Shown in pieces: positions 1,953 through 21,505 of a DNA stretch of 64,000 bases. Both the position numbers and the translations under genes were made by a program. The notes under the pieces were generated by a model that ran no database searches, was not told where the DNA came from, and saw only the letters and a program-made list of their open reading frames with translations. Each line of letters starts with the position of its first letter. The first letter of the stretch is position 1. The stretch comes from a phage, in sequence record PX393108.1. One strand, written 5' to 3'.

Positions 1953-2921
1953 TTATTTCAGAAGAGTAACCTCAGCAATTTCTTCCCAACCGTTTTTGTC
2001 GGTCATAATAAAGTCAGCAAGATAAAGAGCAGTACGCAGTGAAACATTGCGTAAACGATTAACATTAACTTTCATCCATGATAATGCTTTATAAGTTTCT
2101 TCATCAGAAAGACCGCGCTTTTGCATCATGTCAGTTGAAAGAATAACATCTTCAACCCTGACCATAATTTCTTCATTAGTGTGAACACCCAAATCCAAAT
2201 AAACCGAGCGGGACACTAATGCTTGTAAATGTGGAGCAAGTTTAGTACCACGGTCTAATTCGCGGTCAATGTCAACGTTTGTGATAAAAACAATCGTTCC
2301 TTTAAATTCAAACTCACGGTCAATGCCTTTTTCTTCTAAGTAAGAAGATGCAGTGCTCCAGCAGACTTTACGGGTCTCTCCAGTGTCCAGAGCAGCTTTT
2401 AGAAGATTAAGAATGTCCATATCAGAGAAAACATCCACATCATCAATCAAAAGGACAGAATTCTCTTCACGATTATTCCAAAGCTGTTCATAAAGACCAA
2501 TACCAGAGATTTTACCATTAATGCTTTTATACTCAATGTATCCAATATCATTTGCTTTATTTAAAGCTTTATCTAAAGAATACGTTTTACCAATACCTGC
2601 TGCGCCAGAGATAATCAATGAACGAATATTTCCGTTAATAATACCATTCGTCATCATTCCCATAACATTAAATCTTTTATTAATGCGGGTTTTCATATCT
2701 TCATACGATTCTTTAACTTCCTCAACTTTTACACTATCATATGAAATATCTGATTTGTAAACCCAAACACCGCGACGTTTACCGTCAATTTCAACAAAAA
2801 CTTTACCATCTCCTTGTGCATCTACCGGAGCATTATCTGGGAACCATTCGCCTAAGAGCTCAAAAGTTCCAGAGATTTCTTTACCAAAGTAGATACCCTT
2901 ATTGATAGTTACAGTTTTCAT
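1953..2921 (-). CDS. P-loop ATPase (Walker A GAAGIGKT, Walker B LLIDDVD, sensor-like FITN), AAA-like
   Basis: 322 aa from ATG at 2919-2921 (MKTVTINKG, SD GGAGAATAAA); the longer track start at 3089 would read through a terminator hairpin. Confidence 0.7.
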   Translation of the reverse strand: MKTVTINKGIYFGKEISGTFELLGEWFPDNAPVDAQGDGKVFVEIDGKRRGVWVYKSDISYDSVKVEEVKESYEDMKTRINKRFNVMGMMTNGIINGNIRSLIISGAAGIGKTYSLDKALNKANDIGYIEYKSINGKISGIGLYEQLWNNREENSVLLIDDVDVFSDMDILNLLKAALDTGETRKVCWSTASSYLEEKGIDREFEFKGTIVFITNVDIDRELDRGTKLAPHLQALVSRSVYLDLGVHTNEEIMVRVEDVILSTDMMQKRGLSDEETYKALSWMKVNVNRLRNVSLRTALYLADFIMTDKNGWEEIAEVTLLK

Positions 2922-3008: not shown

Positions 3009-3034
3009 TAAAAAAAGGGAGCCCGAAGGCTCCC
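3009..3034 (-). terminator. intrinsic terminator hairpin (GGGAGCC-CGAA-GGCTCCC + U-run) after NTase gene
   Basis: 7 bp GC stem with tetraloop followed by T-run on minus strand. Confidence 0.6.
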
Positions 3035-3036
3035 TA

Positions 3037-4050
3037 TCATTTATAATAACTTCGGTGGTTTTCAAGATAAACCCTCTCAAGGAAGTCATCCCAGAAACCC
3101 ATGTCTACTTTTTGTTGCATACCGTTCTTAGAAGCTTCAATGGATGCTGCTTCTACTTGATCGACCACATCTTCCAAAAACTCTTGAACAGTTTTAAATG
3201 GATGCTTACCCAGCTTCACGTCGAGAATAAATGGAGCGTCTTGAAGTGGATAAACTAAGTCACCGGTTTTGTAAATTTCCAATAGTTGGAGTCCACCACG
3301 ACAAGCATGACTCAGAGCTTTCCAGTCAATACCCTCATTCGCTTCAGCTTTACGAGCACGTTCACCATATTCAGCATCAAGTTTATTCAAAGACTGCTTA
3401 AGCTCAATAAGAGAAAGTGTAGTCTGATATTTACGACCCAACACAGTGTAAAACGTTTGTGGGCCTGTTTTCTCATGATTATGGAATACCCATTCGCAGA
3501 ACTCGTTTTCTGGAAGACGATGCTTAATATCTTCAACTTTAGTGCGACGAAGTCTATCAGGGATTCCTTCTTGATAGTCGACCCACTGGTCAGGGATTTG
3601 ATTAACTACTTTCAATACATCACGCAATGCGGCCAAACGAGAACCCTTGACACCATATTTAGAAGCTTGCTTGCGGACATATCCTAAATAAGATTTCATG
3701 TTAGTTGTATAAAAACGAGAACGATTGTCTTGAATAAACTTCCATACATCAGGCAAATCAGATTTAACTACCAGTTCAGGTGGAGTGTGGAGCATATCCA
3801 ATGCTACAGTTTCACCATCTGCTGCTAATTTAAAGAAATACTTAAGACTGTATAGTTCATGGTCAATATCATCTTTAGTGTTTTTAGATGATGTGTTGTT
3901 AGTGTTTTTACTCATATGCTCTTTAACATTTCCAATAAGAATATCGCGAGCAGGAGGAACAAAGATTTCTTTAAAATCTACATCAGATTCTGGAGTAGAA
4001 GTTCCATAAAGATGACTACCAAAATAGCTTTTCATTACTGTTTTCATCAT
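3037..4050 (-). CDS. Pol-beta superfamily nucleotidyltransferase (GS-x10-DVD motif) with long helical C-terminal domain
   Basis: 337 aa; N-terminal YFGSHLYGTSTPESDVDF matches hG[GS]x9-13Dh[DE]; further acidic residue in ALDMLH. Confidence 0.7.
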   Translation of the reverse strand: MMKTVMKSYFGSHLYGTSTPESDVDFKEIFVPPARDILIGNVKEHMSKNTNNTSSKNTKDDIDHELYSLKYFFKLAADGETVALDMLHTPPELVVKSDLPDVWKFIQDNRSRFYTTNMKSYLGYVRKQASKYGVKGSRLAALRDVLKVVNQIPDQWVDYQEGIPDRLRRTKVEDIKHRLPENEFCEWVFHNHEKTGPQTFYTVLGRKYQTTLSLIELKQSLNKLDAEYGERARKAEANEGIDWKALSHACRGGLQLLEIYKTGDLVYPLQDAPFILDVKLGKHPFKTVQEFLEDVVDQVEAASIEASKNGMQQKVDMGFWDDFLERVYLENHRSYYK

Positions 4051-4508
4051 TCAGCCTTATATTCAATAACAGGACATACTTTAGCTTTACGCGCTTTTAA
4101 AAATTCGACGATAATAGATTTCTTTGGTTGAATAGGAGGTAAACCTTTATACGCCCTATCAATATTTTCTACATGTAAAGCATAATCCTTTTTCCATTTA
4201 TAATCTTTATATTTTTCATGCAGTTGTGCAGGAATAACAAATGAACCAATAATAAGTAAAACAAGCAAAATAGCAAGTATAAATGCTGATGGAATAAGAG
4301 TCCATAAACTACCAAAAATAAGCCATTTCTGCATGATTTCTGCGCAGATGATAGTTAGACCTGCTAGTATAGTACATCCGAAAAAAGAAACGAAAAATGT
4401 AGGGATAACAATAGACCAAAAATATGCACACAGTGTCTTAGGTCGTTTCCATTCGTCGTTAAACATTTTGAATAATTTATAGTGCCAAGAGCTTTCATTA
4501 ATAATCAT
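4047..4508 (-). CDS. polytopic membrane protein
   Basis: 153 aa; several hydrophobic helices; ATGA overlap with downstream NTase gene. Confidence 0.55.
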   Translation of the reverse strand: MIINESSWHYKLFKMFNDEWKRPKTLCAYFWSIVIPTFFVSFFGCTILAGLTIICAEIMQKWLIFGSLWTLIPSAFILAILLVLLIIGSFVIPAQLHEKYKDYKWKKDYALHVENIDRAYKGLPPIQPKKSIIVEFLKARKAKVCPVIEYKAE

Positions 4509-4510
4509 AA

Positions 4511-5032
4511 TTATCCTTTCATTGAAGGTGTAACAGTTGTTAAATACTTAATCATAGCTTCAGCTTCTGATTTTGATAATGAAATTTCTCCATTGTTTTG
4601 ACGAATAGAAATAAAATCTGGATGACGGTCACCACCAGCTTTTAAAATACACATATAAGTATCAGTTTCATCTTCAATATCTGAAATGATTGAAGCAGTT
4701 CCGCATGAATGTGGTTTTTGATAAATCAATGCAGCTTTTCTTCCACCGTTTGACTGTTCATAAACTTTTAACACATCAAACAAATCACTTCTTTTATCAA
4801 TAGCTAAGATGTTGTTTTCATCTTCAATGTTAAATCCTTCGGATACTTCATAAAGTGTCACCCATAAATCGCCAATATCAATGACAGCATTCACCTTTCC
4901 ATGATTTTCAAGAGCATTACAAATTTTCTTAATTTCATCATAACTCATTTTAATAATATCATCTCCTTGAATAAGGAAGATGTCATTTTTAAATTCAACA
5001 CGAATTAAACCGCTTTCACTTGAAATAAACAT
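4511..5032 (-). CDS. hypothetical protein, paralogue of 5039-5602
   Basis: 173 aa; shares GFNIE motif and C-terminal ...KSEAEAMIKYLTTVTPSM with neighbour. Confidence 0.55.
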   Translation of the reverse strand: MFISSESGLIRVEFKNDIFLIQGDDIIKMSYDEIKKICNALENHGKVNAVIDIGDLWVTLYEVSEGFNIEDENNILAIDKRSDLFDVLKVYEQSNGGRKAALIYQKPHSCGTASIISDIEDETDTYMCILKAGGDRHPDFISIRQNNGEISLSKSEAEAMIKYLTTVTPSMKG

Positions 5033-5038
5033 ATTTCC

Positions 5039-5602
5039 TCACTTTGAAATCATAGTTGGAATGACAGAATCAAGATAAGTCTTTAGCGCAATGGCTTCGT
5101 CTTTGGTAAATGTGACAATATGTGATCGAAAATCGTCAATTTGGCGAATAGTTAAGACATCTCCCTCTTCATAACATTTTGATACATTTAAAAGAGTTTC
5201 ATCATTTTGATCGCACTGATCGCAAGCGTTAGTAATAATAGCATTGCAATTTTTAAGCCATTTTAAACTATGTTTTCTTTCATTAGAATAATAAAAATAT
5301 TTAATGTAAGTTATAAAATTATCCCAATTATTAATTGATAAGCATATTGACTCGCTTTCAATGTTAAATCCTGGGCATGAAGAATAAAAATGAATTTTAT
5401 GCTCATCATTGATGCTTACAATTTTATCAGTGTAAGGTTTTTCAATTTGGGTTAAATGAATAATTTCGCTAGGCGTAAAATACAGCATATCGTCTTCTTG
5501 CGTCAAACGATACATATTATTTACTTTTTCTATAGCCAATTCACCAAAAAGTGAACTAACTTCTAGTACTAATCGTTTCATATTAATCCTTTTTATTGGC
5601 AT
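5039..5602 (-). CDS. hypothetical protein, paralogue of 4511-5032
   Basis: 187 aa; C-terminal ...TKDEAIALKTYLDSVIPTM. Confidence 0.55.
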   Translation of the reverse strand: MPIKRINMKRLVLEVSSLFGELAIEKVNNMYRLTQEDDMLYFTPSEIIHLTQIEKPYTDKIVSINDEHKIHFYSSCPGFNIESESICLSINNWDNFITYIKYFYYSNERKHSLKWLKNCNAIITNACDQCDQNDETLLNVSKCYEEGDVLTIRQIDDFRSHIVTFTKDEAIALKTYLDSVIPTMISK

Positions 5603-5861
5603 GAATTTTTTCTAAAATTTTAGAGTATTCCTTTGTATCAGATTTACGCACAATCGATACACTATAAGGCATACTATCAGTGTCTTTTATAAAGCGTTCC
5701 AAATGACACTCTAATAAAATTTCTGGATTATAAATCGTGTACATCAAATTACCTGTTGCTCCACGATATTGGCAGATTTCTACTGATTGAGCATCATTCC
5801 ACAATTTTGTTAAGACTAAATCACCTACTTCTAATTTCGGAAAGCTCACATTATTCACCAA
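5583..5861 (-). CDS. hypothetical protein
   Basis: 92 aa ORF. Confidence 0.45.
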   Translation of the reverse strand: MVNNVSFPKLEVGDLVLTKLWNDAQSVEICQYRGATGNLMYTIYNPEILLECHLERFIKDTDSMPYSVSIVRKSDTKEYSKILEKIHANKKD

Positions 5862-5934
5862 TTAAAGTTTCAATTAATTCTCTTAACTTAAAAGCTTGTT
5901 CATTTGTCATTACATACTCCTTTGAATAATATCA

Positions 5935-5963
5935 ATAATATTGTTAACCAGATTATAAGTAAA
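5935..5963 (-). promoter_or_regulatory. T4-type early promoter (TTTACT-17-TATTAT)
   Basis: Sequence match on minus strand upstream of a 19-codon ORF and the 5583-5861 gene. Confidence 0.45.
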
Positions 5964-6042
5964 CATTGGGTAATTATATTGAATCATCACATACACAACA
6001 AACAAAACTTTCATTCTCTTCTCCTTGGCAGTTGACAAGATT

Positions 6043-6071
6043 ACTATACCATAACCTTGCCAACTTGTAAA
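6043..6071 (-). promoter_or_regulatory. sigma70-like early promoter (TTTACA-17-TATAGT)
   Basis: Sequence match on minus strand in a 200 nt non-coding gap. Confidence 0.4.
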
Positions 6072-20472: not shown

Positions 20473-20548
20473 CTCACTTATAATTGGTCGAGGCAGTAGG
20501 GATCGAACCTACGACCTAGGACTTAGAAGGTCCTTGCTCTTCCTTCTG
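20473..20548 (-). tRNA. tRNA-Arg (anticodon UCU)
   Basis: Cloverleaf folded by hand: anticodon loop CTTCTAA, T-arm GTAGG-TTCGATC-CCTAC, CCA encoded. Confidence 0.85.
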
Positions 20549-20552
20549 AGCT

Positions 20553-20628
20553 ATGCCCCGTAATTGGGGTGACCGATGGGAGTCGAACCCATGACTACGA
20601 GAATCACAATCTCGAGTTCTACCAACTG
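20553..20628 (-). tRNA. tRNA-His (anticodon GUG), discriminator C73, no encoded G-1
   Basis: Anticodon stem-loop CGAGATTGTGATTCTCG; 3' end CCACCCCA like E. coli tRNA-His. Confidence 0.8.
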
Positions 20629-20753
20629 AACTACGGCCACATTAATACCTACTCCAACAATCAAGATGTCTTCACACGAAATTAAGAGAAGAGTGATCAG
20701 TTCAACCCTATAATCGCGTCAAGTAGATATTAATGTGACAGTTGTCACAAATT

Positions 20754-20828
20754 TGGCGGACGTGATAGGATTCGAACCTATAACCAATCGCTTAACAGGC
20801 GATCGCTCTGCCATTGAGCTACACATCC
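20754..20828 (-). tRNA. tRNA-Asn (anticodon GUU)
   Basis: Anticodon loop CTGTTAA; T-arm ATAGG-TTCGAAT-CCTAT; CCA encoded. Confidence 0.8.
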
Positions 20829-20832
20829 AAAT

Positions 20833-20919
20833 TGGTGGGGAGTGATGGAGTCGAACCACCCGAGTCGCAATGACAATGGATTTACAGTCCACACCGCTAC
20901 CTCTACGGGATAACTCCCC
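20833..20919 (-). tRNA. tRNA-Tyr (anticodon GUA), long variable arm
   Basis: 87 nt; anticodon loop CTGTAAA; discriminator A; CCA encoded. Confidence 0.8.
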
Positions 20920-20932
20920 TTAATTCTTAATT

Positions 20933-21007
20933 TGGTGGCCCTGGGTGGAATTGAACCACCATCTGGCGATTATGAGTCGCTTGCTTGAACCTTCCAGCTA
21001 CAGGGCC
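20933..21007 (-). tRNA. tRNA-Ile (anticodon CAU, Ile2/lysidine type; Met not excluded)
   Basis: Anticodon arm GCGACTCATAATCGC identical to E. coli tRNA-Ile2 as recalled; CCA encoded. Confidence 0.75.
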
Positions 21008-21008
21008 T

Positions 21009-21085
21009 TGGTGCTGATTGACGGAATCGAACCGCCGACCTTCTCATTACAAGTGAGTTGCTCTACCTACTGAGCTAAATCAGCA
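21009..21085 (-). tRNA. tRNA-Thr (anticodon UGU)
   Basis: Anticodon loop CTTGTAA; perfect 7 bp acceptor stem; 1 nt from Ile tRNA. Confidence 0.85.
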
Positions 21086-21089
21086 AAAC

Positions 21090-21179
21090 TGGCGGAGGCG
21101 ATAGGATTTGAACCTATGAGTCGCCGGAGCGACTGCCGGTTTTCAAGACCGGTGCATTAAACCACTCTGCCACGCCTCC
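21090..21179 (-). tRNA. tRNA-Ser (anticodon UGA), type II
   Basis: 90 nt; anticodon loop TCTTGAAAA region; long variable arm. Confidence 0.85.
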
Positions 21180-21181
21180 AG

Positions 21182-21255
21182 TCTCCATACAAGGATTTGA
21201 ACCTTGGACCTCCTGATCCCAAATCAGGCGCTCTACCAAACTGAGCTACACGGAG
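21182..21255 (-). tRNA. tRNA-Pro (anticodon UGG), CCA not encoded
   Basis: Anticodon loop TTTGGGA; 3' end lacks CCA; 2 nt from tRNA-Ser. Confidence 0.8.
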
Positions 21256-21265
21256 TAAATTAAAT

Positions 21266-21339
<74 letters not shown>

Positions 21340-21344
21340 AAATT

Positions 21345-21431
21345 TGGTGCGAGAAGTGGGACTCGAACCCACAAGGAAATCATTCCGCAGCATTTTAAGT
21401 GCTGTGCCTTTACCAATTTGACCATTCTCGC
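21345..21431 (-). tRNA. tRNA-Leu (anticodon UAA), type II
   Basis: 87 nt; anticodon loop CTTAAAA; long variable arm. Confidence 0.85.
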
Positions 21432-21432
21432 G

Positions 21433-21505
21433 CTGGGAATAAAGGACTCGAACCTTTGCATCCTGGAATCAAAATCCAGTGCCTTACCAACTTGGCTAAT
21501 TCCCA
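21433..21505 (-). tRNA. tRNA-Gln (anticodon UUG), starts with U1, CCA not fully encoded
   Basis: Anticodon loop TTTTGAT; abuts tRNA-Leu as a dimeric precursor. Confidence 0.85.

Follow-up and report, generated by a model that had tools for sequence, protein, structure and literature searches.

What reaction is catalyzed by the last gene of an early-type transcription unit in a T4-like phage, and do the genes transcribed with it take part in that reaction? The question is raised by a 64,000-nt stretch of a Tequatrovirus genome (PX393108.1; "the window", to which all coordinates refer), in which a unit located entirely on the minus strand ends in a gene at 3037–4050. An earlier note, made from the sequence alone, had described this gene as encoding a Pol-beta-type nucleotidyltransferase (NTase) coupled to a membrane protein and two paralogous genes, and had proposed a nucleotide-signal synthase, an RNA tailing enzyme, or a CCA-adding or repair enzyme as its product. 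Judged by its sequence, the gene is the orthologue of T4 nrdC.11 and encodes a Pol-beta NTase of the RlaP family (Pfam PF10127), within which our comparisons place it in a distinct "long" subfamily, an assignment contributed by the present analysis. As to its function, we lean towards the interpretation that NrdC.11 fills in trimmed RNA 3′ ends ahead of repair by polynucleotide kinase-phosphatase (Pnk) and RNA ligase 1 (Rnl1).

The NTase motif YFGSHLYGTSTPESDVDF corresponds to residues 9–26 of the 337-aa open reading frame (ORF). Phage ime09 encodes an identical nrdC.11 product (100%), and identity is 96% to T4 nrdC.11 (NP_049709, "uncharacterized 38.9 kDa protein"), which has the same length, the same position between mobD.x and nrdC.10, and the same type of terminator. 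NrdC.11 matched PF10127 with an E value of 3.3e-11 (43.8 bits; cut-off 23), a family also matched by 64 of 65 diverse homologues, and its own family includes 3426 clusters (50% identity) at E <= 1e-3, mostly full length. Residues G11, S12, G16, S22, D23, D25, N57, D63, Y132, R231, H248, R251, and P268 were invariant in the 65 homologues (34–55% identity). Of 161 sequences of viral or cellular origin, 160 have D23, 160 have D25, and 159 have D63, which is replaced by E in the remaining two; G11 and S12 were likewise conserved across this set. An hhalign comparison with canonical short RlaPs (probability 93.8%, E = 1.8e-7) aligned D23, D25, and D63 with their invariant D50, D52, and D83. The catalytic triad of a Pol-beta-type NTase is therefore intact and conserved, and the aspartates, whose loss among homologues the earlier note had named as speaking against its assignment, are kept in both homologue sets. 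From its family membership, NrdC.11 is predicted to be a template-independent NTase.

The AlphaFold2 (AF2) model of NrdC.11 (predicted local distance difference test [pLDDT], 94.1; predicted template modelling score [pTM], 0.80) presented an NTase core extending to approximately residue 115, followed by a long helix (119–150), a beta-rich insert (155–209), and a helical bundle (214–336). The approximately 250 aa following the core, previously described as a helical domain, do contain helices but are not purely helical, as the beta-rich insert separates the long helix from the bundle. RlaP, too, is built from an NTase core with a helical domain behind it, and NrdC.11 shares with it aligned G-S, D-x-D, and D motifs as well as cellular relatives associated with RtcB, Pnkp/Hen1, and Rnl1-type ligases. 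However, NrdC.11 (337 aa) is longer than canonical RlaPs (about 255–275 aa), has a beta-rich insert and C-terminal motifs of its own, and is of a type that, in 16 cellular loci, supplies an additional NTase gene 5′ of the one for canonical RlaP.

Cellular members of the NrdC.11 clade were found in RNA-repair neighborhoods, which ties this clade itself, beyond PF10127 at large, to RNA repair. The genomic context was evaluated for 80 cellular loci (32–54% identity) from Desulfobacterales, Nitrospirota, Alphaproteobacteria, and archaea. A canonical full-length RlaP (E = 4e-75) was encoded directly downstream of the long NTase in 16 of these loci and within 6 kb in 25; other genes found nearby encode RtcB (10 loci), Pnkp-like proteins (8), Hen1 (7), fusions of a kinase-phosphatase with an Rnl1-type ligase (5), and Ro60/TROVE proteins (2). 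At least one bona fide RNA-repair gene was present in 17 of the 80 loci. This pattern suggests a two-NTase arrangement in cellular RNA repair. Long NTases located directly 5′ of a short RlaP (among loci L088–L161) were often inside Pnkp/Hen1, RtcB, or Ro60 operons. On the phage side, ime09 encodes both pseT and rnlA, approximately 80 kb from the NTase gene, and the numbers of NrdC.11, Rnl1, and Pnk homologues in the phage collection match closely by genus (286, 287, and 287 for Klebsiella; 83, 83, and 83 for Shigella; 69, 69, and 70 for Acinetobacter), which fits co-occurrence of the three proteins.

The pair formed by T4 Pnk and Rnl1 was the earliest RNA-repair system to be described. RloC cuts out the wobble nucleotide, damage that T4 Pnk and Rnl1 are not expected to mend by themselves, and in 2008 it was considered open whether phages competent for tRNA repair can answer this nuclease (PMC2610378). 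According to a prediction by Iyer et al. (2021), phage RlaPs put back the nucleotide that RloC has taken out, ahead of ligation (PMC7824862), and in a December 2025 preprint RlaP was proposed to counteract "smart" ribotoxins, RloC among them (PMC12776372). The name RlaP for PF10127, which reflects the presence of some members in RNA-ligase operons, is credited in this preprint to Burroughs and Aravind (2016). The preprint also reports that two Pseudomonas RlaPs (PfRlaP and PaRlaP) prefer Mn2+ and add one to two NMP or dNMP to the 3′-OH of RNA, and not to DNA or protein; that, on a mimic of a cleaved tRNA, RlaP favors the broken end in the anticodon loop over the acceptor end; that it raises the aminoacylation of a repaired tRNA missing one anticodon-loop nucleotide; and that RlaPs accept dATP and label many cellular RNAs and full-length tRNA, with little NTP specificity (PMC12776372). 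T4 NrdC.11 is named there as an RlaP (cluster 5 of a similarity network), without an assay (PMC12776372), and T4 tolerates a deletion of the region from nrdC.11 to mobD.3 (PMC9825161). Our literature search found no experiment on NrdC.11.

In the mechanism that we favor, a two-metal site formed by G11-S12, D23-x-D25, and D63 would extend the 3′-OH of a broken RNA by one or a few nucleotides. The likeliest substrate would be a tRNA 5′ half left after an RloC-type host anticodon nuclease has cut and trimmed the anticodon loop; the phage pseT (polynucleotide kinase-phosphatase) and rnlA (RNA ligase 1) products could then reseal a tRNA of normal length. NrdC.11 would thus represent an accessory counter-defense enzyme that is dispensable in laboratory hosts. 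Which substrate is used, how many nucleotides it receives, and the connection with RloC-like nucleases are inferred here rather than observed. Found in 1518 phage records, nrdC.11 is an obvious candidate for the missing "fill-in" step; if it does perform this step, a three-enzyme phage tRNA-repair pathway would be complete and a widely conserved accessory gene explained. Among the products initially proposed, RNA tailing or repair fits both the RlaP assignment and the published RlaP biochemistry (PMC12776372). The earlier note had also allowed that the unit might consist of ordinary conserved T4 genes of known function; nrdC.11 and mobD.1 are indeed ordinary conserved T4-type genes, but their function is not known. 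With nrdC.11, we are dealing with a known gene from a known family, and the fill-in prediction is already in print, so the window brings no new gene or idea; what the present analysis adds is the pairing of the long subfamily with canonical RlaP in cellular repair operons and the finding that the co-transcribed genes form no fixed module.

Several observations weigh against the fill-in role. The similarity between NrdC.11 and RlaP is confined to approximately the first 130 residues (Pfam positions 23–143 of 249; hhalign columns 4–131), and similarity to canonical RlaP over the full length, including the C-terminal helical domain, was not found; it is because of this limited alignment that we consider NrdC.11 a divergent subfamily. 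The C-terminal two thirds, with the beta insert and the motifs Q128-x3-Y132-G-x-K-G-S-R and D-W-K-A-x-S-H-A-x-R, are subfamily-specific, and the substrate or product could therefore differ from those of the characterized RlaPs. The pairing of the long form with a short RlaP in cells likewise suggests that the two are non-redundant and carry out different jobs, and T4-type phages carry the long form only. Across 78 viral loci, no RNA-repair genes were found beside the NTase gene, except for an RtcB gene 4 kb away in one locus (L080), and a Pfam scan of 144 neighboring ORFs from 26 loci of distant phage homologues revealed no recurrent partner and no RNA-repair genes. Shared Tevenvirinae ancestry accounts equally well for the matching genus counts described above. 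In addition, the little NTP specificity of the published RlaPs makes faithful restoration of the wobble base doubtful, as the preprint authors discuss (PMC12776372). Finally, the closest solved structure is that of Hailong HalB, an oligo-dA synthase rather than an RNA-repair enzyme. It is conceivable, if a long shot, that long NrdC.11-type enzymes have a distinct chemistry, for example HalB-like processive or Y132-primed oligonucleotide synthesis, with the product and the coupled membrane protein neutralizing an oligonucleotide-gated or RNA-damage-based host defense in T4-like phages; the tandem of long and short RlaPs in cellular repair operons would then represent two different reactions.

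Structure and profile searches provided few leads to other enzyme classes. Sequence searches of the PDB with NrdC.11, the clade profile, and the canonical RlaP profile returned nothing meaningful, and the PfRlaP crystal structure was not among the matches. A Foldseek search of the PDB with the NrdC.11 model yielded weak kanamycin nucleotidyltransferase (KNTase)-like matches only (best E = 2.7e-3), and an NCBIfam search yielded only sub-threshold noise. PADLOC, applied to six proteins of the unit, identified no defense system other than a marginal Orf5 match for mobD.1a. One alternative, very unlikely in our judgment, is a HalB-like synthase, in which case NrdC.11 would make a free or protein-primed homo-oligonucleotide (e.g., oligo-dA) as a decoy or signal, possibly together with the coupled membrane protein, so that a Hailong-type DNA-gated channel would be kept closed while phage exonucleases destroy the host oligonucleotide. 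Two reports describe Hailong as an operon of two genes, one for a transmembrane protein and one for an NTase, that is triggered by the degradation of oligo-dA by a phage exonuclease (PMC13434031, PMC13276650). In the window, an ATGA overlap couples a membrane gene to the NTase gene; this linkage recurs in phages as distant as those of Acinetobacter, with the membrane gene on the reverse side in locus L067. The invariance of Y132 and the acceptance of dATP by published RlaPs (PMC12776372) are also consistent with such a synthase. However, HalB (PDB 9dbh and 9dbj; an oligodeoxyadenylate synthase with the partner channel HalA) has approximately 217 residues, lacks the long C-terminal part of NrdC.11, and presented no detectable sequence similarity to it, and neither PDB profile searches nor PADLOC linked the two. 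Hailong is a host defense, while the membrane partner of NrdC.11 is dispensable across relatives, being absent from T4, from locus L007, and from all distant phage and cellular homologues; the neighbors in cells are RNA-repair genes rather than channels. A KNTase- or MNT-like enzyme that nucleotidylates a protein or small molecule (e.g., a host toxin or a metabolite) instead of an RNA end is also unlikely. A faint match to MntA_antitoxin reached 13.2 bits, far under the cut-off of 60 bits, and no HEPN toxin gene is adjacent as would be found in a type VII MNT-HEPN system. KNTase, 3c18, and related proteins with an NTase and a HEPN-like helical domain act on small molecules and share 8–10% identity with NrdC.11, with no family-level match; characterized members of PF10127, on the other hand, labeled RNA and not E. 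coli protein or DNA (PMC12776372), and the cellular homologues are located in RNA-repair neighborhoods.

Two other reactions at RNA 3′ ends were considered. General tailing of host or phage mRNAs or small RNAs, which would change their stability in early infection independently of ligase-mediated repair, would be in line with the early-type promoter context, with the labeling of many cellular RNAs by RlaPs in vitro (PMC12776372), and with the physical separation of the NTase gene from ligase genes in phages. We nevertheless consider it improbable, as characterized RlaPs stop after one to two nucleotides (PMC12776372), the cellular homologues are found within repair operons encoding ligases, kinases, and methyltransferases, and the folds of Cid1, terminal uridylyltransferases, and poly(A) polymerases were matched at noise level only (Foldseek probability for Cid1, 0.06; TM-score, ~0.11). 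CCA addition was suggested by the tRNA cluster of the window (20485–21505, minus strand), in which CCA is encoded in 9 of 11 genes; the two genes without it are, as had been claimed, those for tRNA-Pro, which abuts tRNA-Ser, and tRNA-Gln, which abuts tRNA-Leu. An enzyme completing these two tRNAs, or mending acceptor ends damaged by host toxins, would also be compatible with the addition of one to two nucleotides to RNA 3′-OH ends, the labeling of full-length tRNA, and the little NTP specificity reported for RlaPs (PMC12776372). The CCA-adding proposal found no backing in sequence or fold, though: Pfam and NCBIfam returned no match of class I or class II, the fold matches listed did not include one, and the published RlaP preferred the broken anticodon-loop end to the acceptor end (PMC12776372). 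Moreover, T4 has nrdC.11, yet the biosynthesis of some T4 tRNAs needs the host tRNA nucleotidyltransferase, as reported in the title of a 1974 paper by Deutscher, Foulds and McClain (cited in PMC6468291), and vibriophage phi-pp2 was reported to carry a putative tRNA nucleotidyltransferase in addition to its nrdC.11 homologue (PMC3468402); we thus regard this role as highly doubtful. A synthase of cyclic or linear nucleotide second messengers resembling the cGAS/DncV-like nucleotidyltransferases (CD-NTases), or a mimic of one, shares with NrdC.11 only the Pol-beta catalytic motif and is scarcely credible, as no CD-NTase, SMODS, or cGAS match was obtained in Pfam or PADLOC and no effector or sensor gene is located nearby.

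The organization of the unit (Table 1) bears on the second question, that of the genes transcribed with nrdC.11. The 7-kb region is 96–98% identical to many Tequatrovirus genomes, and the order annotated in ime09 is tk, rI.1, rI, rI.-1, mobD.5 to mobD.2a, mobD.1a, mobD.1, an RB69ORF104c-like gene, nrdC.11, and nrdC.10. The ORFs, the NTase motif, the ATGA overlap, the paralogues, the promoter-like sites, and the terminator were all located where the earlier note had placed them, and the NTase gene is indeed the last in a run of genes with the same orientation that ends at a strong terminator. PHROGs assignments for the genes of the unit agree with those from Pfam.

Table 1. Features of the nrdC.11 transcription unit in the window and number of phage records with each gene.
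Feature	Position	Strand	Evidence and remarks	Phage records
Promoter-like site at the head of the unit	6043..6071	-	TTTACA, 17 nt, TG-TATAGT; sigma-70/T4-early type; 10/12 plus TG; consensus match alone	
Second sigma-70-like site	5963-5935	-	9/12; weaker; within the 34-codon mobD.2-like ORF	
mobD.2-like ORF, 34 codons	5910..6014	-	Length (105 nt) and position as T4 mobD.2	
19-codon ORF	5851-5910	-	Precedes the Phage_tudor gene	
Phage_tudor gene, 88 aa, GTG start	5583..5849	-	PF24144, E 7e-40; phrog_3215	267
mobD.1a, paralogue	5039..5581	-	PF24449 and PF24448; ORF open to 5602 (187 aa), start at 5581 likelier (180 aa)	
mobD.1 (ime09 naming), paralogue, 173 aa	4511..5032	-	PF24449 and PF24448	449
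Membrane protein gene, 153 aa, RB69ORF104c-like	4047..4508	-	Hydropathy; phrog_944	860
MotA-box-like TATGCTTTA	4176..4184	-	Inside the membrane ORF; NTase start 125 nt further downstream	
nrdC.11, predicted Pol-beta NTase, "long" RlaP subfamily, 337 aa	3037..4050	-	PF10127; identity to ime09	1518
Intrinsic terminator closing the unit	3016..3035	-	8-bp stem with 6 G-C pairs, UUCG loop, T7 tail	

Sigma-70-like sites were not enriched in this AT-rich region (36 sites vs. 27.4 +/- 5.4 in shuffled sequences), and the two promoter-like sites of the unit are therefore plausible but unproven. The MotA-box-like TATGCTTTA could represent a middle promoter for the NTase gene, but the -10 element that follows it is poor, making this a weak lead. 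The stop and start codons of the 34-codon and 19-codon ORFs overlap, and both ORFs are located between the promoter-like site and the tudor gene. For the tudor gene, which had been described as a 92-aa gene, the ORF was recovered as described (5583–5861 mechanically, from a TTG), but the GTG at 5849 is the likelier start, in agreement with the 88-aa annotation in relatives; the homologue in phage sutha is annotated as a 267-nt coding sequence.

The two genes upstream of the membrane gene are true paralogues, as had been proposed: mobD.1 and mobD.1a matched each other by BLASTP (E = 2e-10, 27% identity) and share the T4_y05I domains PF24449 and PF24448 (E = 9e-34 and 4e-23 in one paralogue, 2e-40 and 5e-23 in the other). 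A structure prediction for mobD.1a, computed from an alignment whose rows were database proteins, suggests a PUR/Whirly-like fold, and both proteins are thus probably single-stranded nucleic-acid binders, a model-based assignment that is likewise a contribution of the present analysis; identity to PUR-alpha, Whirly, and MRP1/2 is 4–12%. This family is restricted to T4-like coliphages (72 clusters). The ATG of the NTase gene (4050–4048) overlaps the TGA (4049–4047) of the 153-aa membrane ORF. Hydropathy of the membrane protein showed broad hydrophobic stretches at approximately residues 25–60 and 62–98, indicating at least two spans, so that "polytopic", as the protein had been called, applies loosely. 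In the family alignment, W8, H9, C27, Y29, K143, and C145 are invariant at both termini and the membrane core varies; these residues could form a metal or disulfide site linking the termini. Pfam, NCBIfam, and PADLOC provided no match above threshold for this protein, and close relatives include truncated variants of the gene.

The functional coupling of the NTase to the membrane protein and the paralogues that the earlier note had envisaged was not borne out, as the genes for these proteins are present or absent regardless of the NTase gene. Among 78 viral loci, the membrane gene is often found just 5′ of the NTase gene, in phages as far as those of Acinetobacter, and it is located 3′ of it in one locus (L067). 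Neither T4 nor any of the more distant phages or cellular genomes has it, and it is also missing from L007, in which the NTase has 94% identity and mobD.3 abuts its gene. T4 has a single mobD.1 copy and, at the site of the membrane gene, the HNH homing endonuclease gene mobD (PMC2988022), whereas the window has the membrane gene, two mobD.1 paralogues, and the tudor gene. Because the numbers of phage records (Table 1) and the phyletic patterns differ among these genes, the unit probably does not represent an obligate NTase-membrane-paralogue module, and that model was rejected. Our comparisons indicate instead that the upstream genes are variable cargo of a plastic region, sharing a transcription unit with nrdC.11, to which the membrane gene appears to be translationally coupled.

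Just beyond the terminator is nrdC.10 (1953–2921, minus strand), which resembles a P-loop/AAA-type ATPase gene, with Pfam AAA matches below threshold. Its product presented 61–78% identity across genera, as compared to 51–68% for the NTase of the same phages, and the gene is missing in a few phages that retain the NTase gene. Many GenBank and UniRef records label nrdC.11, and some nrdC.10, as "thioredoxin"; no thioredoxin domain was found, and the label was apparently inherited from the gene name nrdC. Two contigs from bacterial assemblies, one from a Bacilli metagenome-assembled genome (L084) and one of 178 kb from Flagellimonas marina (L085), carry tk and rI.-1 beside the NTase gene, with rI also present in the latter, and look like T4-like phage DNA within these assemblies.

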